This document shows positions 30,562 to 63,931 of a stretch of DNA of 64,000 bases, piece after piece. The translations under genes were made by a program, and so were the position numbers. Positions within the stretch are counted from its first letter, which is position 1. Each line of letters starts with the position of its first letter. The stretch comes from Candidatus Levyibacteriota bacterium. GTDB taxonomy: Bacteria > Patescibacteriota > Microgenomatia > Levybacterales > UBA12049. Location: the NCBI GenBank assembly GCA_052034235.1, contig JBPOIT010000008.1, positions 79,081 through 143,080 of the forward strand, written 5' to 3'. The notes beneath the pieces were generated by a model. That model was not told the origin of the DNA and ran no database searches. It saw only the letters and a list, made by a program, of their open reading frames with translations.

Positions 30562-30667
30562 ATAATTATGTCAAGACATACACATTGCATGAAGAAGATG
30601 GTTATTAACCCCTAGCGGGCGGTGACTATCATGATGCAAACACCCGCTACAATGAGCGGGTTTTTTT
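30562..30667 (+). ncRNA. candidate ~105-nt small RNA or orphan leader (promoter TTTACA-18-TATAAT at 30526-30555, terminator cccgct-acaatg-agcggg + U7 at 30643-30667)
   Basis: promoter and intrinsic terminator bracket a short non-coding stretch; contains only a 15-codon ORF (30568-30615, MSRHTHCMKKMVINP) without SD. Confidence 0.3.
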
Positions 30668-30768: not shown

Positions 30769-32238
30769 ATGGATCTTAAAAATAAATTACTCTTTGACAA
30801 AGGTCAACCAATACAATTGGGGCTTGGACTCCACAACATAGGAAGTGGCGTACTCCGTTATTCTCATGAAGACGTTAAAAAAACAGTTCAAGATTATTAC
30901 GCACAGCGCTGCGGACATCTGCCGCTCAATGCCAAAACAGTTGGCATGCTCGTTGATGAAATAACAGAAGATATCCGTTCACAAGCCGCATATCTGAGTC
31001 AGTTATACGGAAGAGAAATCAAACTGCTAACGCATGAAGATCTCAAAAAACTCAAAACGAAACCACTCATCGTACCTTATATCCTTGTTCCAGAAGTTGA
31101 AGAACAATTTTCTAAAATTGATGCAAACATGTGGGGGATTCCGGGCAAATTAACACATGTGTTGAAAAACAAATCGGAATTCTATCGCATGGTCAATGTT
31201 CTTAAAGTGGACGATTTCCGTGTGCCTGATTATCAAACTGCCTATTTAGCAGAAGTTATCCCGTATACTAAAGCATTTCTGAAAAAAATTGAAGATATGT
31301 ACACGGAAGCTGGCGTAAGAAATACGTACCCAGTAGGTGTCATGCTACGAGCAGCTGATGAAGATGGTAACTTTGGAAGCTCACTGCTTTATGAAAAAGG
31401 CAAATATGTTGTCATGATCCCAAATGGGGAAATTAGTGACGCACGTGTTTATGGTAATTGGGAAGAAGCACTTGTTAATTCAAAACGCATCCTCGCAGCA
31501 GCCATGCAAACCCAAAAAGAGCCACGTGTCGTTGTAAGCAGATACATCGATGTCGTTGATTCACCAGGATTATCGGTTGTTATACTCAAGGGTTCGGTCT
31601 TTTCACTTGGATGGAACGTACAAACTCAAAAAGAGCCGAGTCGAAACCCTGTCGTTGCTGGAACATACCGTCCAAAAGATCCAATTCTTAAAGGACTTCA
31701 GGAGAAATACGAAACATATTCAGCAAAAGTACTCGAAAAATACCTTCGCAAAACAGCGGAACGCTGCAAAATTGATTTTAATGCAATTGAAGGAATTGCA
31801 AATATTGATCTTATCATTCCAAGTGCGTTAGAGAAAAAATTCCAGGAAAAACGCGGCAATAAAATTGACTTTTACTTTGCAGAATGTAACCCTCGCTGGA
31901 CCACATACTCAGACGCAGTCTTAACAGTGCTTGGAGCGAGAAAACTAGATGCTACAGTTAACAATATGCTCAAAGTTATCAAAGAGGGTATCGCTATTGT
32001 CGATAATTATAAACTTCCAAGTACTATCGATCCAAGAAGTGTCCGTGATCTTATCTACCAAAAAGATCAAGAATTGCAGAAACAAGGCACTAGAATTATA
32101 TGTAGAATGACAACTAATCCAATGGGGGTTATCTTCGCAGGAGATATTGAACTTGCGCAACTTGAGATGAAAAATATCGTAAAGAGTCTCCATTCGCAAA
32201 ACGTAACACGTTCTGCTGCGGAATTTCTTTTTCAATAA
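30769..32238 (+). CDS. hypothetical protein, possibly ATP-grasp-fold ligase
   Basis: 489 aa; C-terminal FYFAECNPRWT resembles the ATP-grasp E-x-N Mg-binding motif; otherwise unrecognised. Confidence 0.3.
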   Translation: MDLKNKLLFDKGQPIQLGLGLHNIGSGVLRYSHEDVKKTVQDYYAQRCGHLPLNAKTVGMLVDEITEDIRSQAAYLSQLYGREIKLLTHEDLKKLKTKPLIVPYILVPEVEEQFSKIDANMWGIPGKLTHVLKNKSEFYRMVNVLKVDDFRVPDYQTAYLAEVIPYTKAFLKKIEDMYTEAGVRNTYPVGVMLRAADEDGNFGSSLLYEKGKYVVMIPNGEISDARVYGNWEEALVNSKRILAAAMQTQKEPRVVVSRYIDVVDSPGLSVVILKGSVFSLGWNVQTQKEPSRNPVVAGTYRPKDPILKGLQEKYETYSAKVLEKYLRKTAERCKIDFNAIEGIANIDLIIPSALEKKFQEKRGNKIDFYFAECNPRWTTYSDAVLTVLGARKLDATVNNMLKVIKEGIAIVDNYKLPSTIDPRSVRDLIYQKDQELQKQGTRIICRMTTNPMGVIFAGDIELAQLEMKNIVKSLHSQNVTRSAAEFLFQ

Positions 32239-49314: not shown

Positions 49315-49524
49315 ATGGCAAAGGCAAAAGTAAAGAAGAAAATAAAAGGTTCAGTTTCAAAACGCTTTAAGGTCACCAAGACCGGCAAAGTGATGTTTGC
49401 GCATCAATACGGAAGTCACAAAAAACTGCACAAATCAAAATCACGTATCCGTCGCCAAAAAGAACCAGGACAATTGACAGGAGCATTCGCAAAGAAAATC
49501 AAACAGATTCTAGGCGCAGCCTAA
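49315..49524 (+). CDS. rpmI: 50S ribosomal protein L35
   Basis: 69 aa, very basic, [26 protein letters not shown] typical of L35. Confidence 0.8.
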
Positions 49525-49531
49525 TAAAACT

Positions 49532-49882
49532 ATGAGTAGAATTAAACGAGGAATCGTATCACGAAGAAAACATAACAAACTGTTGGGACTTACCAAGGGT
49601 TATCGCGGCACAAAGAGTAAACTCGTCAAAGTCGCAAAAGAAGCATACCTGCATGCAGGACAATATGCTTATGAAGGCCGCAAAGACAGAAAGCATGATT
49701 TCCGCACACTTTGGATTGTGAGAATCAGTGAAGCAATCAAACTCGAAGGCATGAACTACAGTGTGTTCATCAACAAACTGAAGAAATCAAACATCGAACT
49801 CGACAGAAAGATCCTCAGCGACCTCATCGTCAACGACCCAGCCGCATTCAAACGCGTAGTTGACACCGTCAAAACCGTATAG
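49532..49882 (+). CDS. rplT: 50S ribosomal protein L20
   Basis: [26 protein letters not shown] typical L20 N-terminus; 116 aa. Confidence 0.85.
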
Positions 49883-49899
49883 TAGGATAAAACAGTACT

Positions 49900-49971
49900 A
49901 TGAATTTCTCAGCAAACAACTATTTTTGGTTTTACTTTACTCCCTCCAAGGGGGGTTCGCTCGTGGCATAA
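49900..49971 (+). CDS. aromatic-residue leader peptide MNFSANNYFWFYFTPSKGGSLVA (23 aa)
   Basis: six consecutive aromatic codons Y-F-W-F-Y-F; AGGA 12 nt upstream; followed by alternative hairpins and intrinsic terminator; occupies the position of pheM downstream of rplT. Confidence 0.55.
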   Translation: MNFSANNYFWFYFTPSKGGSLVA

Positions 49972-50003
49972 ACCCCACTAGCAAAGGTAAAACCTTAAGA
50001 ACA

Positions 50004-50026
50004 CCCCCAACTAAGGGGGTTTTTTT
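50004..50026 (+). terminator. intrinsic terminator of aromatic attenuator (ccccc-aactaa-ggggg + T7)
   Basis: acacccccaactaagggggttttttt; upstream G6 run (49950-49955) can alternatively pair with the C5 arm. Confidence 0.65.
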
Positions 50027-50067
50027 GTGGACAAACGCGAAAAATGTTTTTTTCGCCAGGAGCTTAT

Positions 50068-51012
50068 ATGAAAATTTTAGGCATAGGTGAATCAGTTATA
50101 GATAATGTGTACCAAATTGATGGAGAAGCTCCAAAACATTTTGATGGAAAAGATTTACATTCCACCAAACATGTCGGTGGACCAGTTCTGACTGCCATGA
50201 TTGTGTTGGCAAGACTCGGAGTTCCATGCACCTACATGACATCAGTTGGACGTGACGAAGACGCTGAACTCATCGAGCGGGTACTCAAACATGAAAATGT
50301 CCGCTTACTCCCGAAATACCAGCAAAAAACAAAAGTGAATACCATCGTCATAAATAAACAAACAGGGCAACGGGAAAAGCTGAGAGGACCCATCAAACAC
50401 TCCTCGATAAAAGACCTCAGCCGCAACTTCCTCCACCAATTTGACCTCATCATCATCGACCGACACGAACAACAAGCCTTTTACGAAATCATCAAAAAGA
50501 AAAAAGCCACAACAAAAATCATTATCGATCCGTCAACAGAAATCTCAAAATTCACACTCGATATGATCAAATACGCTGAGTATCCAATTATCCCAATCGA
50601 AGCAGTGACACCAACATTTACCGGCTCACTTGAAAAAATCGACCATGTCCTTAAGAGACTCTATGAATGGACCAAAAAACCACTTGTCATCACAGCTGGA
50701 AACCTGGGGAGTTTTATTTTCAACGGACAATCGGCTGAACTTTTGCAGCCGCTTCCTGTTAAAGCGCTTGATACAACAGGAGCGGGAGATATTTATCGGG
50801 GTGCTTTTGCCTACGGCCTCACACAAAACTGGGATCTGAAAAAAACAGCCAGATTCAGCAACATCGTTGCAGCACTGCAATGTACCAGAATAGGCAACGC
50901 AGCAGCTATTCCTTCAAAAAAAGAAATCATGAAATATCATGACACACTCATTGAAGGAAAAGCTTTAACCTCTTGTACGCTAAACAATATTTATTTACAA
51001 TTACAAAGTTAA
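50068..51012 (+). CDS. PfkB-family carbohydrate/nucleoside kinase
   Basis: C-terminal DTTGAGDIYRGAFAYG (PfkB signature 2); ATG 50068 (MKILGIG) chosen. Confidence 0.6.
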   Translation: MKILGIGESVIDNVYQIDGEAPKHFDGKDLHSTKHVGGPVLTAMIVLARLGVPCTYMTSVGRDEDAELIERVLKHENVRLLPKYQQKTKVNTIVINKQTGQREKLRGPIKHSSIKDLSRNFLHQFDLIIIDRHEQQAFYEIIKKKKATTKIIIDPSTEISKFTLDMIKYAEYPIIPIEAVTPTFTGSLEKIDHVLKRLYEWTKKPLVITAGNLGSFIFNGQSAELLQPLPVKALDTTGAGDIYRGAFAYGLTQNWDLKKTARFSNIVAALQCTRIGNAAAIPSKKEIMKYHDTLIEGKALTSCTLNNIYLQLQS

Positions 51013-51014
51013 CA

Positions 51015-51947
51015 ATGAAACAATACGATTTAGAATTATTCGCCGGACCTTGTTCAATTACTCCTGAAAATACTGAGGAAGTAATAAGTGAAACAGCAAA
51101 CATAACCACACCCGACGGTACGCGTGCAATTTATGGCACGCGCGTTGTCGGTTTAAAATCCCGAACAGCACTTGATTTCAACGGTGACGGCATGGGGCTT
51201 GATTCACAAATCATGCAAAAAGTGATTACCCACAATGATCCTGATCCTAAAAAATATGAAATCCCCAGTGTCCAGTTGGCCGAGAAAATCGCAAAAGCAA
51301 CCGGCATGGTCATTTCAACTGAAATAATGTTGCCACATCTACAGCTGCCGTTTTGGGCAGCCAAAAAAGCACTCCGCGGCAACGTAATGATTTGGAATCC
51401 AGCAGTTGAACAGCTGGGATGGAATCTGTTGGAACTTGCTGCATTTGCCAGGGAAAACGATTGGAATGTCGGCATCAAACACGGCAAATTCCTCGGCAAA
51501 GATCCGCTCGAAGTTGCCAATCATCCAGATTACAAAGGTGAAACAACACTCGAGAAGGTTTTAATTGGTTTGACAACGTATGTGGGTAAGATTGATGGAG
51601 ATTTGGTCATCATTCACCGCGGTGTTGATGTGCCTGGACGCGGCGATTATCGAAACGCCACAATCCATCACATCATGGCACGTATCAAGCATAACATCCC
51701 ACACGGCAAAATCTTTTTTGACCCTACACACACCATCGGCCCGGTCATGCGCCACACCATTGTTGATGAAATTATTAAAGCTGCCAAACTCAAAGTAGGC
51801 GACGAATTTCTCTATGACGGCTTTCTGATGGAAGCTGGAAGTTCGTCACCTGTTGATATGGGAGAACACCTGACACTTGATGAACTCAGAGATGTGGTCA
51901 CAACACTGAGCGAGTTTAGAAAAATAAGGCCGCCAAAAAATTCATGA
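51015..51947 (+). CDS. aroF: 3-deoxy-7-phosphoheptulonate (DAHP) synthase, type I-beta (KDO8PS-like fold)
   Basis: FAGPCSI, IHRGVD and DPTHTIG motifs match DAHPS I-beta/KDO8PS family; operon context favours DAHPS. Confidence 0.6.
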   Translation: MKQYDLELFAGPCSITPENTEEVISETANITTPDGTRAIYGTRVVGLKSRTALDFNGDGMGLDSQIMQKVITHNDPDPKKYEIPSVQLAEKIAKATGMVISTEIMLPHLQLPFWAAKKALRGNVMIWNPAVEQLGWNLLELAAFARENDWNVGIKHGKFLGKDPLEVANHPDYKGETTLEKVLIGLTTYVGKIDGDLVIIHRGVDVPGRGDYRNATIHHIMARIKHNIPHGKIFFDPTHTIGPVMRHTIVDEIIKAAKLKVGDEFLYDGFLMEAGSSSPVDMGEHLTLDELRDVVTTLSEFRKIRPPKNS

Positions 51948-53029
51948 AGACAATTACCGTTACCGCTGAAGAAAAACCGAAAAAACCATACAACATCATT
52001 ATTGGATCCCATCTTCTCCAAAAGCTTGAGAGTATCGTTGATCTGAAGGAGTATTCACACATCGCAATCATAACTGATTCCAATGTCGCGAAGTATCATT
52101 TGGAAACGCTGCGATCACACTTCAAACAGCCCGTCAAAACAATCATTATCCCGCCAGGTGAAAAAGAAAAAACGATCCACTCTGTTGAGATTATTTGGAA
52201 AGAACTTGCTGAAGCTGGTTTTGACCGAAAATCACTTGTTATCAATTTGGGCGGCGGTGTGATTGGGGATATGGGAGGATTTGCAGCAGACACCTACATG
52301 CGAGGAATTGCTTTTATAAACATCCCGACAACTATTCTCGCACAAGTTGACGAAAGCGTGGGCGGCAAAACAGGAATCGATTTTCTGGGCATTAAAAACA
52401 TCATTGGCACATTTCAACAACCTAAAGCAGTAATTATCGATATGGCAACAGTCGCAACGTTGCCCAACAGAGAATTCACCTCAGGTTTTGCAGAAATTAT
52501 CAAACATGGCCTGATCGCTGATAAAACCTATTTTGAAAAAGTCACAGCCAAAAAGCCCCGAGACTTTTCTGAAGAAGAACTCGTTGCTATCATTACCGGA
52601 TCTTGTGAAATAAAACAAAAATATGTAGAAAGCGACACGCATGAGAAAGGCTTAAGGCGGGAACTAAATTTCGGCCACACCATCGGGCATGCAATCGAAT
52701 CACTTAGCCTCCAAACAGATGTGCCATTGCTGCATGGAGAAGCGGTGAGTATTGGTATCGCTGCTGAGGCAAAACTTTCTCAGCTGAAAGGTTATCTTTC
52801 TGAAGACGACGTCCTGACTATTCGCAGAGTTTATGAACATGCTGGTTTACCAACGAGGATCAAACTTTTGGAGACAGAGAATATTATCAATAAAATGAAA
52901 AGTGACAAAAAATCAATTGCTGGCGAAATAAAATGGACACTACTCAAACACATTGGCAAAGCAACGCACGATGAAGAAGTATCAGAATCTCAGATACGCG
53001 AAGCACTCGATTTTATTTTGCATGAATAA
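51944..53029 (+). CDS. aroB: 3-dehydroquinate synthase
   Basis: NAD-binding GGGVIGDMGGFAA and metal-binding His motifs; 361 aa. Confidence 0.85.
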   Translation: MKTITVTAEEKPKKPYNIIIGSHLLQKLESIVDLKEYSHIAIITDSNVAKYHLETLRSHFKQPVKTIIIPPGEKEKTIHSVEIIWKELAEAGFDRKSLVINLGGGVIGDMGGFAADTYMRGIAFINIPTTILAQVDESVGGKTGIDFLGIKNIIGTFQQPKAVIIDMATVATLPNREFTSGFAEIIKHGLIADKTYFEKVTAKKPRDFSEEELVAIITGSCEIKQKYVESDTHEKGLRRELNFGHTIGHAIESLSLQTDVPLLHGEAVSIGIAAEAKLSQLKGYLSEDDVLTIRRVYEHAGLPTRIKLLETENIINKMKSDKKSIAGEIKWTLLKHIGKATHDEEVSESQIREALDFILHE

Positions 53030-54308
53030 ATTGCAACTTGTACCGCTTGAAGAACCTGTCACTGCTGAAGTCGCATTACCCGGCTCACTTAGTTATACAA
53101 TCCGCGCACTTGCGCTTGCTGCAATGACCAAAGGCATTGTGCATATAAACCACCCGCTTAAAAGCGATGACACATATGCCATGCTCGCATCCCTCCAAAC
53201 ACTAGGCATCAAATGTGAGGAAGAAGAAGACGCTTTTGTTGTTTTTGGCGACCTTTCGGATGTGATTGATCAGGAGTACACAATCAATATCAGATTATCA
53301 GGAAGAGCTGCGAGAACTCTTCTGGGGATACTTTGCATTGTACCAGGAACAAAAACCTTAACCTGCAGCGATCCATTTAAAAAACGTCCTATGAAGGATC
53401 TGGTTGAGGGACTGAGACAATTAGGCGCCAAAATCGAATATCTAGAAGACGATGGTCATTTGCCCGTCAAAATTACCTCATCCAAACTCCAAACAGGTCA
53501 CGTCTCAATGGAAGGAACGATGAGCAGTCAATATTTCTCAACACTTATGATGATTGCACCGATGATTGGTGAAGTCTCAATTGATGTTTTGGGCGAACAA
53601 GCCTCAAAACCATTTATCGACATCACTATCGAGGCAATGCAGCGTTTTGGAATTACTGTCTTTAACAACAATTATCAGTCATACAAAATCCCAGCAGGTC
53701 AAACATATACAGCCAAAACGTACACTGTCGAAGCTGATGCAACCGCTGCAAGTTATTTCTGGGGTATAGCAGCTGTGACGGGAAGTACCATAACCGTTAA
53801 AAACGTTTCACCCGAATCCAAACAAGGAGACGTAAAATTTGTAGAAATACTCGAAAAAATGGGCTGCACCATAACTGCAGACGAATCAGGAATAACCGTA
53901 CAAGGTAACGAACCGTTGGTTGGCGTTACAGTTGATATGAATCATCTGCCTGACGTTGTGCCAACGCTTGCAGTCGTCGCATCATTTGCAAAAGGTACAA
54001 CCACAATCACCGGACTTGGACATCTCAAAGGAAAAGAATCAGACCGAATTGAAGCACCAAAAGAAGAACTTACCAAATTAGGCGTCACCATTTCTTCTAC
54101 CGAAAATTCACTGACCATCCAAGAGTCAACACCCGGTAGCGCTGAAGTGCAAACACACGGCGATCATCGAATAGCCATGTCTTTGGCAATTGTCGGCGCA
54201 AAAATTCCAGGACTTGTCATACATAATCCCGAAGTTGTCAGTAAGTCATTTCCTGAATTTTGGGGTACAATAGAAGAGTTGGGAATAAAAACAAAGGAAA
54301 TCGTATGA
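53022..54308 (+). CDS. aroA: 3-phosphoshikimate 1-carboxyvinyltransferase (EPSP synthase)
   Basis: EPSPS family length and LPGSLSYTIRALALAAM, conserved KESDRI region; ATG 53022 overlaps aroB stop. Confidence 0.85.
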   Translation: MNKLQLVPLEEPVTAEVALPGSLSYTIRALALAAMTKGIVHINHPLKSDDTYAMLASLQTLGIKCEEEEDAFVVFGDLSDVIDQEYTINIRLSGRAARTLLGILCIVPGTKTLTCSDPFKKRPMKDLVEGLRQLGAKIEYLEDDGHLPVKITSSKLQTGHVSMEGTMSSQYFSTLMMIAPMIGEVSIDVLGEQASKPFIDITIEAMQRFGITVFNNNYQSYKIPAGQTYTAKTYTVEADATAASYFWGIAAVTGSTITVKNVSPESKQGDVKFVEILEKMGCTITADESGITVQGNEPLVGVTVDMNHLPDVVPTLAVVASFAKGTTTITGLGHLKGKESDRIEAPKEELTKLGVTISSTENSLTIQESTPGSAEVQTHGDHRIAMSLAIVGAKIPGLVIHNPEVVSKSFPEFWGTIEELGIKTKEIV

Positions 54309-54805
54309 ATATAATTCTAATCGGCTTCATGGGAGCCGGAAAAACAACTATCGCTAAAAAACTTGCTGCTGAACTCGATTTCAAATATATCGACATGGAT
54401 ACGGTTATTGTTGAGAAATCAGGCAGAAAATCTGACAGAGAGATCTTTGAGAAAGACGGAGAAATCGCGTTTCGCGAATTTGAAATTCTTGTTGCCAACG
54501 AGCTTAAAGACGAACAAAATCATGTTATCTCAACAGGAGGCGGTATTGTCATGAACCAGGTAAGTATCGCTTATCTCAAAAAAAATGGGGTCGTGGTCTT
54601 TTTACAGACTGGCTTTGAAACAGCAAAAAGCCGCGTCCACCAGGACGAACCGCCACCACTTTTTAAAGACAAAGAAAAAGCAAAAGAGCTCTACGACTTG
54701 CGCCAGCCACTGTATCACTTTTACGCAGATGTCATTGTTGAAACCGACGACAAAAATCCAAATGAAGTAGCGCAAGAAGTTATACAAAAGATCAAACATT
54801 TATGA
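54305..54805 (+). CDS. aroK: shikimate kinase
   Basis: MNIILIGFMGAGKTT Walker A at N-terminus; 166 aa; ATGA overlap with aroA. Confidence 0.8.
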   Translation: MNIILIGFMGAGKTTIAKKLAAELDFKYIDMDTVIVEKSGRKSDREIFEKDGEIAFREFEILVANELKDEQNHVISTGGGIVMNQVSIAYLKKNGVVVFLQTGFETAKSRVHQDEPPPLFKDKEKAKELYDLRQPLYHFYADVIVETDDKNPNEVAQEVIQKIKHL

Positions 54806-55632
54806 ACATCACAGCACAAACTAAAATTTGTATGGTAATAGGTGACCCCGTCGGCCATTCACTCGGTCCGCAAATGTATAATCCCGCATACAAAGCACTT
54901 GGCATCGATAACGAATACGTGTACGTCGGCTGCAATGTGAAAGTTGAGGAACTTGAAGATTTTTTCAAAGGCGTCAGGGCAATGCATATACGAGGCATCA
55001 GCTGCACTGTGCCGCATAAAGAACATGTGAGAAAATTTCTTGATGTCATCGATGAAACCGCACAAAAAATCGGCGCCGTTAACACAATAGTAAACGAAAA
55101 TGGTGTCTTACACGGCTATAACACTGATTGGCTGGGTGTTGTCACACCGCTTGAGAAAATCACCTCACTTGAAAATAAAACCGTTGCCCTGCTTGGCACA
55201 GGCGGCGCAGCAAAAGCGGTTGCATACGGCGTAACAAAACTGGGCGGACAACTCGCAGTGTTTGGCAGAACCTTTGAAAAAGCGGAAGCACTTGTTGATA
55301 CGTTTGGAGGAGATGCATATTCATTTGAGGCGCTTGAAAAAGTGAGTGACATGGATATTATTTTTAACGCCACACCCGTTGGGCTTCATCCACATGTAAA
55401 CGAAACGCCGCTGCCAAAAGAATATATAAAGAGTCATCATATTGTCTTTGACGCGGTCTATGCGCCTCATAAAACAAAATTCCTGAGCGATGCTGAGAAA
55501 CAAGGTGCTACAATAATCTATGGTACAGAGATGTTGCTCTACCAGGGAATGGAGCAGTTTAAACTCTATACAGGACACGATGCACCAGAAGATGTGCTGA
55601 GGACTATTTTAAAGGAGCACGAAAACGTATGA
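54802..55632 (+). CDS. aroE: shikimate 5-dehydrogenase
   Basis: GDPVGHSLGPQMYN (substrate-binding) and GTGGAAKAV Rossmann motif; 276 aa. Confidence 0.8.
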   Translation: MNITAQTKICMVIGDPVGHSLGPQMYNPAYKALGIDNEYVYVGCNVKVEELEDFFKGVRAMHIRGISCTVPHKEHVRKFLDVIDETAQKIGAVNTIVNENGVLHGYNTDWLGVVTPLEKITSLENKTVALLGTGGAAKAVAYGVTKLGGQLAVFGRTFEKAEALVDTFGGDAYSFEALEKVSDMDIIFNATPVGLHPHVNETPLPKEYIKSHHIVFDAVYAPHKTKFLSDAEKQGATIIYGTEMLLYQGMEQFKLYTGHDAPEDVLRTILKEHENV

Positions 55633-56321
55633 CACATAATTACTGTTTACCGATTATAAAAAGAACAAAAGCTGAGGTGCTTGAAAAAATAACGCTGGCT
55701 CATGACTATCATTATTTTGAAGTCTGGCTTGATTATATTGAAGATTTGGATTTTGATTTTGTTCACGAACTGCTTACCTACAAAGACAGAATCATTTTTG
55801 TTTTGAGAAGACAGCATTTAGAAACGCCTACGATGGAAACACAGCGCCGCTTGTCGATTATTTCCGCAATCAGCAAATCAGAATGCATGCTCGATTTGGA
55901 TGTCATCACCCAGCAGGAAGAACTGTCTTATATCCAGAACAATAACTTAGAAATTCCTTTGATAACGTCCTATCACGATTATCAATCAACACCAGAAGAA
56001 AAAAAGCTGATTGAAGTTATGTCGATTATGATGAACTACAAACCAGCCATTATAAAAATTGCAACGAAATGTAATAAACCAGAAGACGGCCTTCGACTGC
56101 TTGATTTGCTGTTGAGTTTGAAAAAGGAAAAGAAAAAGTACATTATTTTGGGAATGGGGGAGTATGGTACAATTACGAGGCTATACGGAGCACTTTGGGG
56201 CAACGAATTTATCTTTGCACCAGAAAAAAAGGAAGAAGCATCAGCACCAGGGCAACTGACAAGAGAAGAGATGCAGACTGTTCTTGCTATTTTAAATGAG
56301 AGTGAAACAAAATCAGACTAA
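55629..56321 (+). CDS. aroD: 3-dehydroquinate dehydratase, type I (tentative)
   Basis: 230 aa; YFEVWLD resembles the type I DHQase ExRxD motif; only missing step of pathway in the operon. Confidence 0.5.
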   Translation: MTHNYCLPIIKRTKAEVLEKITLAHDYHYFEVWLDYIEDLDFDFVHELLTYKDRIIFVLRRQHLETPTMETQRRLSIISAISKSECMLDLDVITQQEELSYIQNNNLEIPLITSYHDYQSTPEEKKLIEVMSIMMNYKPAIIKIATKCNKPEDGLRLLDLLLSLKKEKKKYIILGMGEYGTITRLYGALWGNEFIFAPEKKEEASAPGQLTREEMQTVLAILNESETKSD

Positions 56322-56333
56322 TTAATAAGCATT

Positions 56334-57419
56334 ATGGCTGGAAATACATTTGGACATTTATTTAGAGTTACAACCTTTGGAGAGTCGCATGGCGGCGCGG
56401 TTGGTTGTGTCATAGACGGCTGCCCGCCAAACATTGAAATAACTGCAGAAGAAATCCAAAAGGAACTCGATCGACGAAAACCTGGCCAAAGTGCCATTAC
56501 CACTCCACGCAAAGAACAGGACATCATCCATATTTTATCAGGCGTTTTTGAAGGGAAAACAACCGGCACACCAATCCTCATGCTTGCCCACAATACTGAT
56601 ACGAGACCTGAAGATTACGGAAACTTAATTGAACTCTATAGACCAGGACATGCAGATTTTACGTACGAAGCAAAATATGGCATCAGGAATTGGAAAGGCA
56701 GCGGACGCGCATCAGCCAGAGAAACACTTGCCCGCGTCGCTTCAGGAGCACTTGCCAAAAAATATTTGAAAGAAAAACTCGGTGTTGAGGTTTTGAGTTA
56801 TGTCGAAAGTGTCGGCGATATTAAAACCACTGTTGATTTTAACGAGGTCACTATGGATCAGATTGAAAGTAATATTATCCGATGTCCAGATGGAAAAATC
56901 GCTGAGAAAATGATCAAACTCGTTGAAGAAGTGCGAGATGACGGCGATTCTATTGGTGGAGTTATACGAGGCGTTATCAAACATGTTCCTGCAGGTTTGG
57001 GTGAGCCTGTTTTTGATAAGATTCCTTCAGAGCTCGGTAAAGCCATGATGAGTATCAATGCCGTGAAAGGTTTTGAAATTGGATCAGGTTTTGAAGGAAC
57101 AACGATGCGTGGCAGTCAGCATAACGACGAGTTTTTTGTCGATGAGAATCAGACAATCCAAACAAAAACCAATCATGCAGGCGGTACATTGGGAGGAATC
57201 TCAACTGGTCAGACAATCCATTTTCGTGTCGCATTCAAACCAGTCTCAACGATAAGTAAAAAACAAAAAACGGTAAATAAGCAAAAAGAAGAGATCGCTA
57301 TGGAAGCAAGCGGCAGACATGATCCTTGTGTTTTACCACGAGCAGTTCCGATAGTTGACGCCATGAGTGCTCTTGTTATAATGGATCAATATTTAAGGCA
57401 TAAAGCACAAAATCAATAA
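56334..57419 (+). CDS. aroC: chorismate synthase
   Basis: [21 protein letters not shown]-terminus and conserved chorismate synthase signatures; 361 aa. Confidence 0.85.
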
Positions 57420-57420
57420 T

Positions 57421-57690
57421 ATGAGCCATGACTTAAACAAACTGCGAGAGAAAATTGATACCATTGACGATGAAATCGTTGGTTTGTTATCAAAGCGCAT
57501 GGAAATTGTTGAGAAAGTAGGACAGTACAAAAAAGAAATGCAGCTGCCGCCGCTTGATAAAAAGCGCCTTGAAGAAGTGCTGCATACAAAAAAGAACAAA
57601 GCCAAAATTTTGGGCATTTCTGAGTCATTGGTTGAAAAATTATTTAAGGTAATTCACGACCATTCAGTAAAATTACAAAAAAAAGTATGA
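57421..57690 (+). CDS. chorismate mutase (AroQ class, monofunctional)
   Basis: LNKLREKIDTIDDEIVGLLSKRMEIV typical AroQ helix; 89 aa. Confidence 0.7.
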   Translation: MSHDLNKLREKIDTIDDEIVGLLSKRMEIVEKVGQYKKEMQLPPLDKKRLEEVLHTKKNKAKILGISESLVEKLFKVIHDHSVKLQKKV

Positions 57691-58829
57691 AACTAGCCAA
57701 GCGAGTTGATCTTATCCCTGAATACATCCATTTCCGCCTCGGGCGAGAACTGAAGGCTGTGGAAGAAAAGACGGGACGCAAGGTCCTGCATTTCGGCATC
57801 GGCAGTCCTGATGTGACTCCAAGTGAAATCTATCTTGAAAAACTAACTGAATTTTTCCACGAACCAAAAGCACACATGTATCCTGGCTATACCGGCATTC
57901 CTGAATTTAAACAAGCACTCGTTTCCTGGTATAAAACACGTTACGGTGCAATGCTTGAAACATCTGAGGTTGATATTGTGCTCGGCGGCAAAGATCTCAT
58001 CAGCCATCTCCCATTTGTCCTTTTTGATGAAGGCGATGAGGTATTGGTTCCAGATCCAGGTTATCCATCATACACAGAACCTGCAATCCTTTTGGGTGCC
58101 AAACCAATTGCCTATGATTTGATTGCCGAAAATGATTTTAAACCAGATTATAAAAATATCACATCAAAAATTTCAAAAAAAACCAAAGCAATCTGGGTAA
58201 ACTTCCCCTCAAACCCAATAGGACAAGTCTTAACCCTTGCAGAGCTTGAAGAGCTCGTGGCATTTGCAAAAGAACAAAATCTGTTTATTTTGTACGATAA
58301 TGCCTATTCAGACCTCACCTTTGACGGATTTGTCGCTCCAAGTATTATGCAAATAGAAGGTGCCAAAGATATCGCAATTGAACTTGGATCATTCTCAAAG
58401 ACATTTTCATTTGCCGGTTATCGTATGGGTTGGATTGCCGGAAACAAAGATGTCGTTTCAGGTCTTACCAAAATTAAATCACAAATGGATTCTGGCATGA
58501 CGCTTCCGCTTCAAAAACTCGGTGCGTATGCGCTCAACAATTTTGATAAAAAATGGCACACAGCAACTGTCCAAAGTTACAAAGACCGACGGGATATCAT
58601 TGCGGAAAAAATCAAAACACTCGGACTGACGTTTGAAATGCCAAAGGGTGGTATGTTTATTTGGGCAAGAATTCCTGACAGTGAAAAAGATTCCGAAACT
58701 TTTGCGATGAATCTTCTTAGAAACAAACAGATTCTCGTCACACCCGGAAGTGCCTTCGGCAAAAACGGCGACCGATACGTAAGGGTCAGTTATTGTTCTG
58801 ATATCACCAAAATCAACGATTACTTCTAA
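57687..58829 (+). CDS. class I/II PLP aminotransferase (probable aromatic/prephenate aminotransferase)
   Basis: SFSKTFSFAGYRMGW PLP-lysine motif, NPxG region; 380 aa; within aro operon. Confidence 0.65.
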   Translation: MKLAKRVDLIPEYIHFRLGRELKAVEEKTGRKVLHFGIGSPDVTPSEIYLEKLTEFFHEPKAHMYPGYTGIPEFKQALVSWYKTRYGAMLETSEVDIVLGGKDLISHLPFVLFDEGDEVLVPDPGYPSYTEPAILLGAKPIAYDLIAENDFKPDYKNITSKISKKTKAIWVNFPSNPIGQVLTLAELEELVAFAKEQNLFILYDNAYSDLTFDGFVAPSIMQIEGAKDIAIELGSFSKTFSFAGYRMGWIAGNKDVVSGLTKIKSQMDSGMTLPLQKLGAYALNNFDKKWHTATVQSYKDRRDIIAEKIKTLGLTFEMPKGGMFIWARIPDSEKDSETFAMNLLRNKQILVTPGSAFGKNGDRYVRVSYCSDITKINDYF

Positions 58830-58830
58830 G

Positions 58831-60147
58831 ATGAAAAAAGTCACCATAATCGGTTACGGCAGGTTTGGAAAAACACTCTTTCGTCTTTTGAAGGATGAGT
58901 TTGAGGTGACTATTTATAAACGTAAAAAAGCTGAGGGTGAAGAAGGACCAATCACCACTGATCTCAAAAAAGCCTACGAAAACGATACCATATTCTTTGC
59001 AGTCCCCATCGAATCATTTGAGTTTGTCCTATCAGAACACAAAGACTATTTCAGACCTGAACAGGTGCTGATTGATGTCCTTTCCGTCAAACTTCACCCC
59101 AAACACATCTTTGAAAAATATTTGAAAGGTTCCAAAACACAAGCACTGCTAACACATCCAATGTTTGGTCCTGACAGTACTACTCAAGGATTTGCAGATT
59201 TGCCAATCGTCATGGATCAGTTCACGTCAGAGAAGAAAACCTATGACTTTTGGAAAAATGTGTTTGCAAAAAAAGGGTTAAGCGTTATCGAAATGTCCGC
59301 AGATGAGCACGACAGGCTCGCAGCTGATTCACAAGGATTAACTCACTTTATCGGAAGATTACTTGATGAAATTGCGATGAAAGAAACCACCATTGATTCG
59401 CTGGGTGCAAAGCGTTTACAAGATGTACGCGAGCAAACATGTCATGATACCTGGGAACTCTTTACCAACCTCCAACATTACAATCCCTACACCAAACCCA
59501 TGAGAATAAAACTCGGGGAGGCATACGATAAACTCTACAACAAACTCATCCCAAAACAACTTCATAAAGAGTACATCACCATCGGCATTCAAGGAGGGAA
59601 GGGAAGCTTTAACGAAGAAGCTATCAATTATTATCTCAAACGAAACGGTATAAAAGAGTACAAAATCGAATATCTCCACACCTCAGACCGTGTCTTTGCG
59701 GAACTGCACGAGGGTTCAATCGACCAGGGTCTTATCGCCATTCACAATTCAATCGGCGGCGCTGTCACCGAAAGCATCCAGTCCATGGCCAAACACAAAT
59801 TCGAAATCGTCGAAGAATTCGCAATCATCATCTCCCACACCCTTATGATACGAAATGATGCGACGCTAAAGGACATCGACACCATCATGACCCATCCCCA
59901 AGTCCTAGCCCAATGCAAAAGCTCACTCGCCCAAAAATACCCACATCTCAAACAAACCAGCGGAGAAGGAGAACTCATAGACCACGCCCTCGTCGCCAAG
60001 TCATTAAGCGAAGGCAAACTCCCAAAAACTACCGCCACCATGGGCAGCCGAGTCCTGGCTGATATTTACGGATTAAAAATAGTAGAAGAAAACCTCCAAG
60101 ACCTCAAAGAAAACTACACAAGCTTCCTGCTTGTAAAAAGAATTTAA
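58831..60147 (+). CDS. bifunctional prephenate dehydrogenase (TyrA) / prephenate dehydratase (PDT) fusion, no ACT domain
   Basis: N-terminal Rossmann VTIIGYGRFGKT and TyrA core; C-terminal ITIGIQGGKGSFNEEA...HNSIGGAV...NYTSFLLV PDT domain ending right after the TRF-like motif. Confidence 0.6.
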   Translation: MKKVTIIGYGRFGKTLFRLLKDEFEVTIYKRKKAEGEEGPITTDLKKAYENDTIFFAVPIESFEFVLSEHKDYFRPEQVLIDVLSVKLHPKHIFEKYLKGSKTQALLTHPMFGPDSTTQGFADLPIVMDQFTSEKKTYDFWKNVFAKKGLSVIEMSADEHDRLAADSQGLTHFIGRLLDEIAMKETTIDSLGAKRLQDVREQTCHDTWELFTNLQHYNPYTKPMRIKLGEAYDKLYNKLIPKQLHKEYITIGIQGGKGSFNEEAINYYLKRNGIKEYKIEYLHTSDRVFAELHEGSIDQGLIAIHNSIGGAVTESIQSMAKHKFEIVEEFAIIISHTLMIRNDATLKDIDTIMTHPQVLAQCKSSLAQKYPHLKQTSGEGELIDHALVAKSLSEGKLPKTTATMGSRVLADIYGLKIVEENLQDLKENYTSFLLVKRI

Positions 60148-60203
60148 CAAGAATTTCACCGATTTTTCCCAATATTTCCAAAAAATGTTATAATAAATTC
60201 TCT

Positions 60204-60497
60204 ATGGAACTTAAAACTATAAAACAATTAGCAAATCCCATTTTAAAAAAATATGGTGTCGTTCGAGCAGCTGTTTTTGGATCTGCAACCAGAAATGAGA
60301 TGAAAAAACAAAGCGATGTGGACATGCTTGTGGAACTACCTCAATCAGTCCATGGATATGATTATGTTGCTCTCAAAGTTGATTTGCAAGAGGAACTTGA
60401 AACTGCACTTGGAAAACGTGTTGATTTAGTCGAATATGATCTTATCAAACCCGAATTAAAACAGTATATTCTTCCTTCACAGGTACAAATACTATAG
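60204..60497 (+). CDS. mntA: MntA-like minimal nucleotidyltransferase (antitoxin of HepT/MntA pair)
   Basis: GSATRNEMKKQSDVDMLVE (GSx9-13DxD NTase motif); 97 aa. Confidence 0.65.
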   Translation: MELKTIKQLANPILKKYGVVRAAVFGSATRNEMKKQSDVDMLVELPQSVHGYDYVALKVDLQEELETALGKRVDLVEYDLIKPELKQYILPSQVQIL

Positions 60498-60498
60498 C

Positions 60499-60843
60499 AT
60501 GAAAAAAGATCCTCTTATTTTTCTTACCGATATTCTGTTTTCAATTAATCTCATTGAGGAATATATCAAGGACTCGAATCTAAAATCATTTGAAGAACAC
60601 TACGGCACACAAGATAAAGTTATGCACCGTCTGGAGATAATTGCAGAATCCGCAAAACGTTTACCAGAAGAAACCCGTCTGAAATATAATTCCATTCCCT
60701 GGAAAAGTATAATCGGTCTAAGAAATATTATTACTCACACCTATGACGAAGTTAATCTTCAAGAAATTTGGGAAATAATAACTAAACACCTTCCAGAAAC
60801 AAAAAAACAAATTGAACAAATAAAAACCGATTTACAAAAATAA
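60499..60843 (+). CDS. hepT: HepT-like (DUF86/HEPN) toxin
   Basis: RNIITHTY (Rx4HxY HEPN motif); 114 aa; 1-nt spacing after mntA. Confidence 0.65.
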   Translation: MKKDPLIFLTDILFSINLIEEYIKDSNLKSFEEHYGTQDKVMHRLEIIAESAKRLPEETRLKYNSIPWKSIIGLRNIITHTYDEVNLQEIWEIITKHLPETKKQIEQIKTDLQK

Positions 60844-60901
60844 ATACTTCTCGTATCTTATATAACAGACGTGGTTGAGGTTGAGGCCGATTCACGTTAT
60901 A

Positions 60902-61960
60902 ATGATCTTTATGAAAGAAAATCTTTTATCTATTAAAAATAATGCAATTTCGCTTGTTATTTCGGCGAAATCTTTGAAGGAACTTGAGGAAATTAAACTG
61001 CAGATACTTGGACGCAGTGGGATTTTGACAACTGCTTTGAAAGAGATGTCCAAGGTACCGGTGGAGCAGAAGCCTGAGGTGGGGAGGGTTGTGAATGAAG
61101 TGAAGACGATTATTGAGGATTCAATCGCCACCAAAGAAAAGGAACTTAAAAAGACCAAGGCGAGTACTCGTAAAATGCTTGATGTCACTGAACCGGGGAA
61201 GAGGCCGGAGCTTGGGAGTTTGCATCTTATTACCCAGGCAATCAGAGAGATTACTGAGATTTTTGAACATATCGGATTCACTCGTGAACGATATCCTGAA
61301 ATTTCGTATGATTGGTATAACTTCACAGCACTCAACTTCCCGGAAAACCATCCAGCTCGGGATGATCTCGAAACCTTTTATATCGCAGGTACACCGCATA
61401 AACAAAAAGGACGCATGATGCTTAACGTTCATACCTCAACTGGCCAAGTCCAGCATATGGAGCGCGTCAAACCGCCATTCAAAATGCTCAATATCGCAAA
61501 AGTGTATAGACGCCAATCAGACGTTTCTCACACACCTGTTTTCCACCAATTCGAAACCCTCGTCGTCGGCGAAAATATTTCGATATCTCACTTAAAAGGT
61601 GTTTTGGATTATTTCGTCAAATCATATTTCGGCGAAACTCGAACAGCACGCATCAGACCATACAATTTCAGATTTACAGAACCATCATTTGAAACCGACG
61701 TTTCATGCGGTGTCTGCAAAGGAACAGGCAAAATCGGAAGTGAAAAATGCAGACTCTGCAAAGAAGGCTGGCTCGAACTCGGAGGCGCCGGCATGGTCCA
61801 TCCAAATGTCCTCAGAGCAGGCGGAATCGATCCAAACAAATACACAGGCTTCGCATCTGGCTGGGGAGTCGAGCGGGTACTTATGATGAAAGAAGGAATT
61901 AAAATCGACGATCTGAGGACACTCTATGCAAACGATTTGGACTTTTTGAAACAATTCTAA
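60902..61960 (+). CDS. pheS: phenylalanyl-tRNA synthetase alpha subunit
   Basis: class II motifs (FPENHPARD, GAGMVHPNVL, GWGVER); start uncertain (TTG 60875, ATG 60902 or 60911; TTGAGG-17-TATAAT promoter at 60875-60903). Confidence 0.85.
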   Translation: MIFMKENLLSIKNNAISLVISAKSLKELEEIKLQILGRSGILTTALKEMSKVPVEQKPEVGRVVNEVKTIIEDSIATKEKELKKTKASTRKMLDVTEPGKRPELGSLHLITQAIREITEIFEHIGFTRERYPEISYDWYNFTALNFPENHPARDDLETFYIAGTPHKQKGRMMLNVHTSTGQVQHMERVKPPFKMLNIAKVYRRQSDVSHTPVFHQFETLVVGENISISHLKGVLDYFVKSYFGETRTARIRPYNFRFTEPSFETDVSCGVCKGTGKIGSEKCRLCKEGWLELGGAGMVHPNVLRAGGIDPNKYTGFASGWGVERVLMMKEGIKIDDLRTLYANDLDFLKQF

Positions 61961-61972
61961 TTAGTAAACTTT

Positions 61973-63931
61973 ATGAATATTAAAATTTTAGACAGCTGGT
62001 TGAGAGAATATCTTAAAACCAGTGCAACACCAAAACAAATAGCTGAAAAACTATCACTTTCAAGTGTGTCAGTTGAACGTATCGAGAAATTCAAAAAAGA
62101 CGACTATGTCTATGACATCGAAGTCACAACCAATCGACCAGAACTCATGTCAGTTATCGGCATCGCACGAGAAGCAGCAACCGTCCTTCCACAATCAGGA
62201 ATCAAAGCTTCATTCACTGAACCCAAACTCACCATGCCCAAAGTGACAATTAAAAATGGTCCCAAAATGACAATCAAAAATGATCCAAAGCTTGTGCATA
62301 GAATTCTCGCAGTCATCATGGAAGTAAACCTCAAAGATTCACCACAATACGTCAAAGACAGACTTGAATCAACAGACATCAGAAGCCTCAACAACGTTAT
62401 CGACGTTACCAATTACATCATGCGCGAAATTGGCCACCCGACACATGTCTTTGATTACGACAGACTCACCAATTACACACTCATCATCAGAGAAGCAAAA
62501 CGTGGAGAAAAAATAAAAACACTTGACGACAAAGTCTATACACTTTCAGGCGGAGACATCGTTGCAGACGACGGAACCGGCCAAATTGTCGATTTGCTTG
62601 GCGTTATGGGCACTGCCAACAGTGTCGTCACCAATGAGACCAAACGCATCCTCTTTTTTATCGACAGTGTTGCACATACAAGAATTCGTAAAACATCAAT
62701 GGAACACGGCATCCGAACAGAAGCCGCAGTTCTTAACGAGAAAAACCTCAATCCAGAATATGCAGCTGACGCATTTGCAGCTGGTGTAAAACTCTTTGAA
62801 AAAATCGCAAACGCTAAAATCGTTTCAAACATCATAGAAATCTATGAAACCAAACCAAAAGCAACCAAAATTTCTGTCACTGAAGAAAAAATTAACAGTG
62901 TCGTCGGAATAACCATCCCTCTCAAAACATCAGTTGAAATCCTGACCAAACTCGGATTTGAAGTCAAACTCAAAGGCACAACGCTTGATGTCATTGTCCC
63001 GCCAAAAAAGAGTGGACTGGACATGCAAATCACCGAAGACATCATCGAAGAAATTGCCCGTGTGTATGGCTACCACAACATCCCAGGCTCACTGCCGCCA
63101 ATCACCAACAAAGAATATGTCCATATCGAGAAAAGTGATCTCTTTTGGGAAGACCGGATCAAAGACAGTCTCAAATATTGGGGCTTCACAGAAGTCTATA
63201 CCTATCCAATGGTTTCAAAAGAGCTTATCACCAGCAAACATGATGAAGCAGTCACCATTCATAATCCCTTAAACGAAGAATTTGTGTTTATGCGCCAAAC
63301 CTTAATTCCAAGCCTTCTTCAGGTAGCTGACAATAATCCTGACCATACAGTCATCAAAATATTTGAAATCGCAAATATTTATGAAAAAACCCGAGAGTTG
63401 CCAAGACAAGCAATGAGACTCTCAGGACTCATCAGAAAACCCAAAAATTCCTTTTATGAAGTTAAAGGTCTTGTCGAACAACTGCTTGATGACTTAGGCA
63501 TTAGAGCGCTTTCATTTACCAATTTGCCAGAAGAGCGAAACGGTGCCACAATTTATATCAGTAAAAAGGAACTTGGCGTTATTGAAATCATTGACGACAC
63601 AACAATTGATTTTGAACTCGATTTATCAGTACTGCTCGCACATGTCCGCCAAAAGCGCACATACACACCGCCAAGCAAATATCCACAACTCATTGAAGAT
63701 ATCGCTGTCATAGCGCCTTCTGATGTCACGACAGGGGATTTACTGGAAGCACTTGCCAAACAAAGTCCACTCATTACAGAAGTAACACTTTTTGATAAAT
63801 ATCAGGAAACCCGAACGTTCCACATCGTCTATCAAAGCATGAGTAAAAATTTAACCAACGAAGACATCAAACCAATCAGAGAGAAGATTTTGAAACTGTT
63901 ACACGAGACATTCCACGCAAAACTGAAATAA
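61973..63931 (+). CDS. pheT: phenylalanyl-tRNA synthetase beta subunit (652 aa, short form)
   Basis: B3/B4 and B5 domain-like regions, conserved C-terminal FDVY-like ferredoxin-fold anticodon-binding domain; follows pheS. Confidence 0.8.
   Translation: MNIKILDSWLREYLKTSATPKQIAEKLSLSSVSVERIEKFKKDDYVYDIEVTTNRPELMSVIGIAREAATVLPQSGIKASFTEPKLTMPKVTIKNGPKMTIKNDPKLVHRILAVIMEVNLKDSPQYVKDRLESTDIRSLNNVIDVTNYIMREIGHPTHVFDYDRLTNYTLIIREAKRGEKIKTLDDKVYTLSGGDIVADDGTGQIVDLLGVMGTANSVVTNETKRILFFIDSVAHTRIRKTSMEHGIRTEAAVLNEKNLNPEYAADAFAAGVKLFEKIANAKIVSNIIEIYETKPKATKISVTEEKINSVVGITIPLKTSVEILTKLGFEVKLKGTTLDVIVPPKKSGLDMQITEDIIEEIARVYGYHNIPGSLPPITNKEYVHIEKSDLFWEDRIKDSLKYWGFTEVYTYPMVSKELITSKHDEAVTIHNPLNEEFVFMRQTLIPSLLQVADNNPDHTVIKIFEIANIYEKTRELPRQAMRLSGLIRKPKNSFYEVKGLVEQLLDDLGIRALSFTNLPEERNGATIYISKKELGVIEIIDDTTIDFELDLSVLLAHVRQKRTYTPPSKYPQLIEDIAVIAPSDVTTGDLLEALAKQSPLITEVTLFDKYQETRTFHIVYQSMSKNLTNEDIKPIREKILKLLHETFHAKLK

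Follow-up and report, generated by a model that had tools for sequence, protein, structure and literature searches.

In Escherichia coli, pheST is preceded by the pheM leader in the gene order thrS-infC-rpmI-rplT, leader, ... pheST; pheM comprises a short open reading frame (ORF) with an aromatic run, a GGAGGC-type segment 2 and the terminator GCCUCC-CAGU-GGAGGC-U7. Phe biosynthesis is likewise controlled through the E. coli pheL leader of pheA (chorismate mutase/prephenate dehydratase), which ends in ...FTFP and has ACCUUCCCC as segment 1, GGGAGG as segment 2 and GGCCUCCC-AAAU-CGGGGGGCC-U6 as terminator. The E. coli ilvGMEDA leader is multivalent, with Ile, Leu and Val codons, and in Firmicutes, aminoacyl-tRNA synthetase and aro genes are usually under the control of T-box riboswitches. 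Classical attenuation instead of a T-box precedes synthetase genes in gamma-proteobacteria (pheST) and in Streptomyces/Actinobacteria (trpS, leuS) (PMC1262725), and in mycobacteria, leaderless polycysteine short ORFs are reported to act as amino-acid-responsive attenuators (bioRxiv 10.1101/834739). Here we describe an element with the same build as pheM in a bacterium from the candidate phyla radiation (CPR), located in a 64,000-nucleotide (nt) stretch of contig JBPOIT010000008.1 of Candidatus Levyibacteriota bacterium (hereafter the window) between rplT and an aro/tyrA-pheA operon. With high probability, the element is a transcription attenuator of the classical ribosome-mediated (leader-peptide) type, through which the availability of charged aromatic tRNAs is sensed. 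The analysis is computational throughout: anatomy, conservation, covariation and mutually exclusive folds were computed, and from these we infer ribosome stalling and termination efficiency.

The locus lies on the + strand immediately downstream of rplT (49532–49882; Pfam Ribosomal_L20; stop codon at 49880–49882), which is itself preceded by thrS, infC and rpmI. After 17 nt, an ATG at 49900 opens the listed ORF MNFSANNYFWFYFTPSKGGSLVA*, of 23 codons (49900–49971, stop codon at 49969), which is kept in 55 relatives and contains the regulatory codon run Tyr-Phe-Trp-Phe-Tyr-Phe (TAT TTT TGG TTT TAC TTT, 49921–49938). Segment 1, ACUCCCU (49939–49945), can pair with segment 2, GGGGGGUUC (49950–49958), in a covarying helix that forms an anti-antiterminator or 'protector' hairpin. 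Segment 2 begins with a G6 tract (49950–49955) and has as its alternative partner segment 3, GAACACCCCC (49999–50008), through GAAC.ACCCCC. Segment 3 thus serves both as the 3' strand of the antiterminator and, over 50003–50008, as the 5' arm of a predicted intrinsic terminator, ACCCCC-AACUAA-GGGGGU with T7 in all (50003–50026). The 3' arm of this terminator, segment 4 (GGGGGU, Shine-Dalgarno-like), and the U7 tract (50020–50026) together span 50015–50026. Between segments 2 and 3 lies a spacer (49959–49994) with an inner hairpin (49959–49982) and a AAGGUAAAACC element (49984–49994), in which GGTAAAAC or TAAACCA is kept across relatives. In the folding models, the AAGGUAAAACC element pairs in the off state with the Trp-Phe-Tyr-Phe codons, positions 49928–49938 of the run forming the 5' strand of this long-range helix, and otherwise adopts a small hairpin inside the antiterminator. 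An earlier reading of the bare letters (the sequence-only reading) had pointed to a 23-codon ORF with six consecutive aromatic codons right after rplT, and to a G6 tract followed by a strong C5/G5 terminator with T7; both are present as it described them.

As a check, that reading also proposed folding for mutually exclusive RNA structures, and folding of the window sequence produced them. The protector (49928–49994), combining the helix of the aromatic codons with AAGGUAAAACC, the pairing of segments 1 and 2 (1:2) and the inner hairpin, reaches -28.1 kcal/mol (z = -3.8); the antiterminator (49950–50008), in which G5.GUUC pairs with GAAC.C5 around two enclosed hairpins, reaches -24.7 kcal/mol (z = -4.2); and the terminator has -11.1 kcal/mol. 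The ribosome-free full-length leader of the window folds as protector plus terminator. Equilibrium folding of full-length RNAs with a masked ribosome gave a muddled picture, since nesting of 1:4 and 2:3 pairing is possible there, and it was replaced by folding of nascent transcripts ending at segment 3 with the ribosome footprint imposed, in 55 loci. With the A site on an aromatic codon, the nascent RNAs formed the 2:3 pairing in 50–55 of the 55 loci, and with the ribosome at the stop codon in five of 55. In full-length RNA with the ribosome at the stop codon, the terminator formed in 54 of 55.

We therefore consider the following switch. A promoter overlapping the end of rplT would make the mRNA begin at the leader AUG or a few bases 5' of it. 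When aromatic amino acids are plentiful, the translating ribosome would pass YFWFYF and reach the stop codon at 49969, where it would cover segment 2, or the protector would form after its release. This would leave segment 3 available for pairing with segment 4, so that RNA polymerase would terminate at the U7 tract. When Phe-tRNA or Tyr-tRNA (possibly also Trp-tRNA) is scarce, the ribosome would be expected to stall in the run, covering it together with segment 1. Segment 2 (G6UUC) could then pair with segment 3 (GAAC.AC5) as the antiterminator before segment 4 is made, and the polymerase would read into the aro/tyrA-pheA operon and probably pheST.

The conservation of the element was followed in relatives defined as the 80 best rplT matches among GTDB species representatives, all metagenome-assembled genomes, whose loci we label L0nn. 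Their titles name Candidatus Levyibacteriota/Levybacteria, Patescibacteria group, Microgenomates or Gottesmanbacteria, and complete chromosomes among them measure 0.76–1.6 Mb. An aromatic-run short ORF lies 3' of rplT in 55 of these 80 species-level relatives; the other 25 loci mostly have a gap of 36–130 nt between rplT and pheS with no leader. The sequence-only reading had made its case depend beforehand on conservation of the leader ORF, and the ORF is conserved in these 55 species. The peptide follows the consensus M-x(5-7)-(Y/F)F(W/Y)FYFT(S/P). With the frame-blind motif TTT[AG]C as anchor, an open path to an ATG exists in the aromatic frame of all 55 leaders, compared with two and one of 55 in the other two frames, and N-terminal insertions and deletions come in multiples of three (alignment A1, 37 leaders). 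A G+C-rich hairpin with a U-tract follows the leader ORF in 55/55; the U-tract has at least four U in all loci, six to nine in most and seven in the window. In four relatives without aro genes at the locus (L016, L029, L040, L055), the same leader stands directly before pheS, over which direct control is plausible there, and the leader is therefore an analogue of pheM. Together with three loci where aro genes abut pheS (L002, L010, L012), this bears out the 'pheM position' proposed for it. Gene orders at the locus vary between relatives, and the aro genes, which the sequence-only reading called inserted, may have been either gained or lost.

Two side observations concern these loci. Many of the relatives' records (L002, L007, L014 and others) are titled 'uncultured Gammaproteobacteria bacterium'; they have the same synteny and the same leaders as the records titled Levyibacteriota, with L20 identities of 66–78%, two of them have contigs of 1.3–1.6 Mb, and these titles look unreliable. 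In aro-less loci, a family of ORFs of 68–75 amino acids (aa) lies between leader and pheS (L017:4294-4500, L024:3722-3940, L028:10509-10736, L037:10501-10728, L045:1860-2075); it has a conserved ...TREGLA... motif, and the two members checked gave no Pfam match.

A per-sequence search recovered the four-segment layout in 55/55 leaders, the detection of segment 1 being unreliable in L017, L046 and L076. Typical relatives have ACUUCCC as segment 1, GGGAGGU as segment 2 and ACCUCCC / GGGAGGU as segments 3 and 4, or similar sequences, and the window represents a G/C variant (ACUCCCU / GGGGGGU / ACCCCC / GGGGGU). In a short Phe-rich subtype (L021, L039, L040, L049, L051 and others), CCC/GGG is changed to CGC/GCG in the four segments together. 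In nearly all leaders, segment 1 begins at the last aromatic codon or right behind it, and in the shortest ones inside the run; about 3–6 nt separate it from segment 2. In L052 and L056, the 2:3 stem is long and obvious. Where the stop codon is located 5' of segment 2 (e.g., in L035, L055 and L076), the leader retains this segment, which indicates that the constraint on segment 2 acts on the RNA and not on the C-terminal peptide.

For the covariation analysis, a covariance model of the off-state structure (R1) was built from 37 leaders, and all matches were realigned with it; column counting on the plain MAFFT alignment A1 was abandoned because the terminator register was off by one base in several rows. 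In the R1 alignment, which is fitted to the off-state model and whose pairing statistics ignore kinship, the 14 pairs of 1:2 and 3:4 are formed in 90.9% of cells, compared with 52–69% when the partners are slid by 1–3 columns; changes occur on both sides in 13 of the 14 pairs, and none of 500 shuffles reached the observed pairing or covariation score. The 2:3 helix, counted in this same off-state-fitted alignment, is paired in 80% of cells (at most 67% when slid), with double changes in six of seven pairs. In a permutation among the 55 leaders, terminator arms paired with their own upstream region at a mean of -11.9 kcal/mol, compared with -10.7 kcal/mol for the upstream regions of other species, and none of 5000 permutations reached the matched energy; the corresponding values for the terminator 5' arm of the window are -10.9 kcal/mol and a mean of -7.1 kcal/mol. 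Compensatory support is strong for 1:2 and 3:4, and weaker but above controls for 2:3. Covariation of the pairings had been named in advance by the sequence-only reading as decisive, and compensatory changes in 1:2 and 3:4, with 2:3 tracking the terminator arm, are what we observe. The permutation and the masked folding also support its proposal that the G6 tract pairs alternatively with the C5 arm of the terminator.

Upstream of the leader, a putative sigma-70-type promoter, TTGACA (49860–49865), 17 nt, TAGGAT (49883–49888), matches the consensus at 10 of 12 positions (49860–49888, + strand). It sits in the last rplT codons and the spacer, and its -10 box ends 11 nt 5' of the leader AUG. Wherever the leader directly follows rplT, the promoter overlaps the 3' end of that gene. 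A promoter-like -10 hexamer ends 3–23 nt before the AUG in 49 of the 55 leaders (6–11 nt in 36), with an exact TTGACA -35 box at 17–18 nt in 21 of those 49, and in 54 of 55 leaders the AUG has no Shine-Dalgarno-like motif in front of it. This spacing and the absent Shine-Dalgarno motif suggest that the leader mRNA is leaderless or nearly so. With a leaderless start, transcripts that read through from rplT would be translated poorly and would undergo termination.

The codon content of the leaders correlates with the genes behind them. The run in the window comprises three Phe, two Tyr and one Trp codon. All 30 leaders before aro/tyrA/pheA operons contain Tyr (mean 2.0) and Phe (mean 3.0) codons, and 24 of them one Trp codon, UGG being absent in the other six; the four leaders directly before pheS are Phe-rich and lack Trp. 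L031 has tandem leaders, one mixed and one of Phe type before a prephenate dehydratase-ACT gene. The genes under control act in the pathway of the amino acids read by the leader (shikimate, chorismate mutase, prephenate dehydrogenase/dehydratase; also pheST). That Phe and Tyr are sensed agrees with this codon/gene correlation. The mixture of codons had been taken as a sign that all three charged tRNAs are sensed; that suggestion holds for Phe and Tyr, whereas sensing of Trp is uncertain, since a single UGG is involved, several species (six of the 30 aro-linked leaders lacking it) replace it with Tyr or Phe, and in the window it also lies within the helix with the downstream GUAAAACC element.

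Several observations weigh against an attenuator of this kind. The number of independent compensatory events is limited, since most members share GGGAGG/CCUCCC, and RNAalifold prefers a nested fold of 1:4 and 2:3, because segment 1 resembles segment 3 and segment 2 resembles segment 4. At equilibrium, the ribosome-free nascent RNA forms 1:2 in 29 and 2:3 in 26 of the 55 loci, and the off state therefore probably relies on the order of folding and on the extra long-range helix. The minimum-energy fold of the full-length window leader still contains the terminator when the ribosome is on the last two aromatic codons. Efficient translation of the leader, given the missing Shine-Dalgarno motif, depends on the putative leaderless or short-leader start. 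The window matches the Rfam family Phe_leader (RF01859) end to end at 26.3 bits (E = 0.012–0.05), below the gathering threshold of 55, and this threshold was reached in none of nine relatives' loci; the element thus stands outside the curated family. Finally, the evidence is computational, and the host is an uncultured CPR bacterium. A T-box or another riboswitch was dropped as an explanation, since the Rfam scans gave only the sub-threshold Phe_leader match: at gathering, the whole window yields only two tRNAs and no T-box, and no T-box appeared in 49500–50300 at E up to 10 or in the nine relatives' loci.

A different kind of control, in which translation of the leader governs ribosome loading instead of, or besides, transcription termination, is suggested by the sequence of the terminator itself. 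In its main form, which we judge improbable, the hairpin of segments 3 and 4 would sequester a Shine-Dalgarno-like GGGGG/GGGAGG for a start codon placed after the U-tract. Segment 4 reads GGGAGG(U) in most relatives; a U-tract of about 6–9 nt follows, and in 34 of 55 loci an AUG or GUG comes next. This codon opens a long ORF (49–361 codons) in seven loci, and in four of them, L010, L012, L035 and L052, that ORF is recognisable as the first structural gene. In the window, a putative GUG-initiated mini-ORF of 14 codons (50027–50071, + strand) starts right after the U-tract and ends in a UGA that overlaps the start codon of pfkB, the first gene (AUAUGA). Against translational control as the chief mechanism, a G+C-rich stem followed by a U run is a canonical intrinsic terminator and is present in 55/55, 21 of the 55 loci have no start codon after the U-tract, and the first gene of the window has its own Shine-Dalgarno sequence 40 nt further on (AGGAG, 50058–50062, before the ATG at 50068). 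As a universal start, the GUG or AUG after the U-tract was rejected, being confined to those 34 loci and opening mostly mini-ORFs of 1–29 codons. Translational control is thus better seen as a possible second layer added to transcription attenuation than as an alternative to it.

The remaining explanations fare worse. The hairpin could be the ordinary terminator of the thrS-infC-rpmI-rplT operon next to a fortuitous short ORF, with an independent and unregulated start of the aro operon. In its favour, the hairpin sits right after rplT, where it would also stop upstream read-through, and a run of at least six aromatic codons somewhere in the six frames occurs in 13.5% of first-order Markov simulations of 64 kb with the same composition, so the run alone is not significant. 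The leader is nevertheless more than chance because of its context (a short ATG-initiated ORF in an intergenic gap, directly 5' of a terminator) and its conservation in 55 species, where ORF, frame, aromatic run and segments 1 and 2 are all kept. Segment 2 covaries with the terminator arm, and second copies occur in split aro operons far from rplT (L035:9392, L036:13161, L066:6950), so that this explanation is very unlikely. Equally implausible is an effect of the aromatic peptide itself, either as a TnaC-like nascent arrest peptide that senses free amino acids in the exit tunnel or, in trans, as a small hydrophobic protein: the core (Y/F)F(W/Y)FYFT(S/P) is indeed highly conserved as amino acids, but its nearly invariant part, UUUUACUUUACUUCCC, is conserved as nucleotides and base-paired in the models, the N and C termini vary freely with the stop codon ranging from before segment 2 to about 45 nt after it, and in sister elements the same RNA frame is filled with Ile/Leu/Val or Thr runs.

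The ribosome-mediated attenuator can thus be set against the described systems. When R1 was run against 5 kb of E. coli sequence, it found pheM at 37.8 bits (E = 2e-5) and pheL at 34.2 bits, each from the AUG to the U-tract, and nothing else of note. These E. coli elements share with the CPR leaders the ...UUUUACUUU.../...FTFP codons, a GGAGG-type segment 2 and a GCCUCC(C)/GGAGGC terminator, and the end of the pheL peptide is very close to the ...FTFA and ...FYFTS of the CPR leaders. Unlike pheM, the window leader mixes Phe, Tyr and Trp codons in its run, has an AUG without a Shine-Dalgarno sequence and a putative promoter placed for a leaderless start, and lies apart from pheST, with aro/tyrA-pheA genes over about 10 kb and a toxin-antitoxin pair in between. 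The differences from pheL are that the codons of the CPR leaders are mixed aromatic and not Phe only, that the phylum is another one, and that the whole shikimate pathway with both the Tyr and Phe branches is controlled. As in ilvGMEDA, one leader serves a group of related amino acids that are made through a common operon, and in contrast to the known synthetase and multivalent attenuators, a single attenuator here precedes both biosynthetic and synthetase genes. The combination of Phe, Tyr and Trp was not among the described leaders found in the literature. Like the mycobacterial short ORFs, the leader ORF would lie at or near the 5' end of the transcript, lacks a Shine-Dalgarno sequence and is rich in the sensed amino acid; it differs from them in that the leaderless start is deduced here from promoter spacing. 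A canonical intrinsic terminator follows the leader ORF of the window. Literature searches on leader peptides or attenuation in CPR, Patescibacteria, Levybacteria and Microgenomates, whose coverage was incomplete so that absence is not proof, returned nothing relevant.

The aromatic leader is accompanied by elements of the same build elsewhere in the window. On the - strand, a second attenuator (27580–27477) with the leader MRNSAALLVIVALAS and the terminator ACCGCC-GAAA-GGCGGU-U7, then AUG, has a promoter (TTGACA-17-TAGAAT) 9 nt before its leader AUG and precedes the ilv operon, comprising ilvB (25777–27462), ilvN, ilvC, ilvD and a class IV aminotransferase gene. A third (20589–20482, - strand), whose Leu-rich leader MNSQNILLNLALLTV is followed by CCGCC-GGAA-GGCGG-U7 and then AUG, precedes the leu operon with an FTR1-like permease gene, leuA, leuC (aconitase family) and leuB; its match to R1 is weak (25.1 bits). 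A fourth leader-like element, MSRHTHCMKKMVINP (30568–30667, + strand; terminator ACCCGCU-ACAAUG-AGCGGGU-U7), lies 5' of an ORF of 489 aa (30769–32238) that has no Pfam match.

In the relatives, R1 identified second aromatic-leader copies inside or before split aro operons (L035:9392-9520, L036:13161-13282, L066:6950-7062, L031:10936-11043), placed variously before pfkB-DAHPS-tyrA/pheA, aroB or a prephenate dehydratase-ACT gene; this shows that the leader module is portable and not bound to the rplT junction. R1 also matches sister elements with Ile/Leu/Val or Thr runs. Leaders with Ile/Leu/Val runs (L028:3211, L021:3841, L013:570, L044:2687, L032:2594, L027:529, L062:4611, L069:5393) precede ORFs of 145–490 aa without a Pfam domain, and the domain-less proteins 3' of such leaders are apparently under amino-acid-starvation control. 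One leader of the Ile/Leu/Val kind, at L026:519, precedes an Asp/Glu racemase-like gene, and a Thr-run leader, MKKLFKINTTTFF, stands just before thrS in L009 (L009:7368).

Taken jointly, these elements lead us to a wider proposal that we offer tentatively and with considerable doubt: Levybacteria-like CPR bacteria may have genome-wide leaderless leader-peptide attenuators derived from one module (a -10 box a few bases 5' of the AUG, no Shine-Dalgarno sequence, CCUCCC/GGGAGG-type segments 1–4, and a terminator 3' arm doubling as Shine-Dalgarno sequence for a start codon after the U-tract). This module would be tuned to Phe/Tyr/Trp, Ile/Leu/Val, Leu or Thr and would control biosynthetic operons, pheST, thrS and domain-less proteins, and its member between rplT and pheS would share ancestry with the gamma-proteobacterial pheM. 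The usual picture of CPR/Patescibacteria is one of reduced and mostly auxotrophic episymbionts. The locus points to a Levybacteria lineage that encodes shikimate/Phe/Tyr, ilv and leu operons and puts them under textbook ribosome-mediated attenuation, which needs tight coupling of transcription and translation. In uncultured organisms, conserved leaders of this kind provide testable sensors of amino-acid starvation: the amino-acid status in situ could be read from metatranscriptome coverage across the terminator, and the leaders flag unknown proteins as starvation-induced. Given the likeness to E. coli pheM at the same syntenic junction, one may ask if the attenuator is of ancient origin or has been reinvented repeatedly. 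The mechanism as such is already known, and the host group, the breadth, the mixed aromatic codons, the likely leaderless start and the Shine-Dalgarno-like terminator arm are notable rather than revolutionary.

Between the terminator and the AGGAG of the first gene, immediately 5' of the latter, the window contains an A/U-rich hairpin of 8 bp, GCGAAAAA-UGUU-UUUUUCGC (50037–50056, + strand), which is specific to the window and has no counterpart in the leader loci of the relatives. The operon behind it (50068–60147, + strand; Pfam/NCBIfam) encodes, in order, a PfkB-family kinase, a protein resembling 3-deoxy-D-arabino-heptulosonate-7-phosphate (DAHP) synthase, aroB, aroA, aroK, aroE, aroD (type I), aroC, chorismate mutase, a class I/II aminotransferase and a fused prephenate dehydrogenase/dehydratase. 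All matches of the first product (50068–51012, + strand), a sugar kinase, fall under the NCBIfam equivalog cut-offs, and this kinase is kept at the same place in many relatives (47–82% identity). The second product (51015–51947, + strand; 310–324 aa) contains the motifs GPCS, K-S-R-T, HRG and DPTH and shares 39–74% identity with its counterparts in 15 aligned relatives. Searches of Pfam, NCBIfam and, with the single sequence, the PDB returned nothing for it; BLAST against the relatives' Pfam DAHP_synth_1-positive proteins gave 22% identity (E = 2e-4), and a family profile searched against the PDB gave seven weak matches, all to DAHP synthases (E = 0.1–0.4). The protein is thus a candidate for a very divergent DAHP synthase, and a complete Phe/Tyr pathway, which is plausible, rests on it. 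Of the complete 11-gene pathway claimed by the sequence-only reading, the part from aroB to the prephenate dehydrogenase/dehydratase is present, whereas the first gene encodes the PfkB kinase and the second only the distant DAHP-synthase-like protein. The tyrA-pheA fusion (58831–60147, + strand) encodes a single protein of 438 aa with prephenate dehydrogenase at its N terminus and prephenate dehydratase at its C terminus. No ACT regulatory domain was detected in it, and allosteric feedback may therefore be missing, leaving attenuation as possibly the main control.

Between tyrA-pheA and pheS, this genome has a toxin-antitoxin pair of MNT (nucleotidyltransferase) and HepT (HEPN RNase) (60204–60843, + strand) that is not found at this spot in the relatives examined. 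The pheST genes follow at 60875–63931 (+ strand, Pfam; pheS at 60875–61960, then pheT), downstream of the aro operon as had been predicted. From 50751 to 61357, the + strand shows only weak matches to the terminator consensus and no strong terminator-like site, and pheST of the window is probably the distal end of the same transcription unit as the aro operon. In L002, L010 and L012, the aro genes are followed by pheS without a break, and the attenuator there consequently heads one aro-pheST unit.

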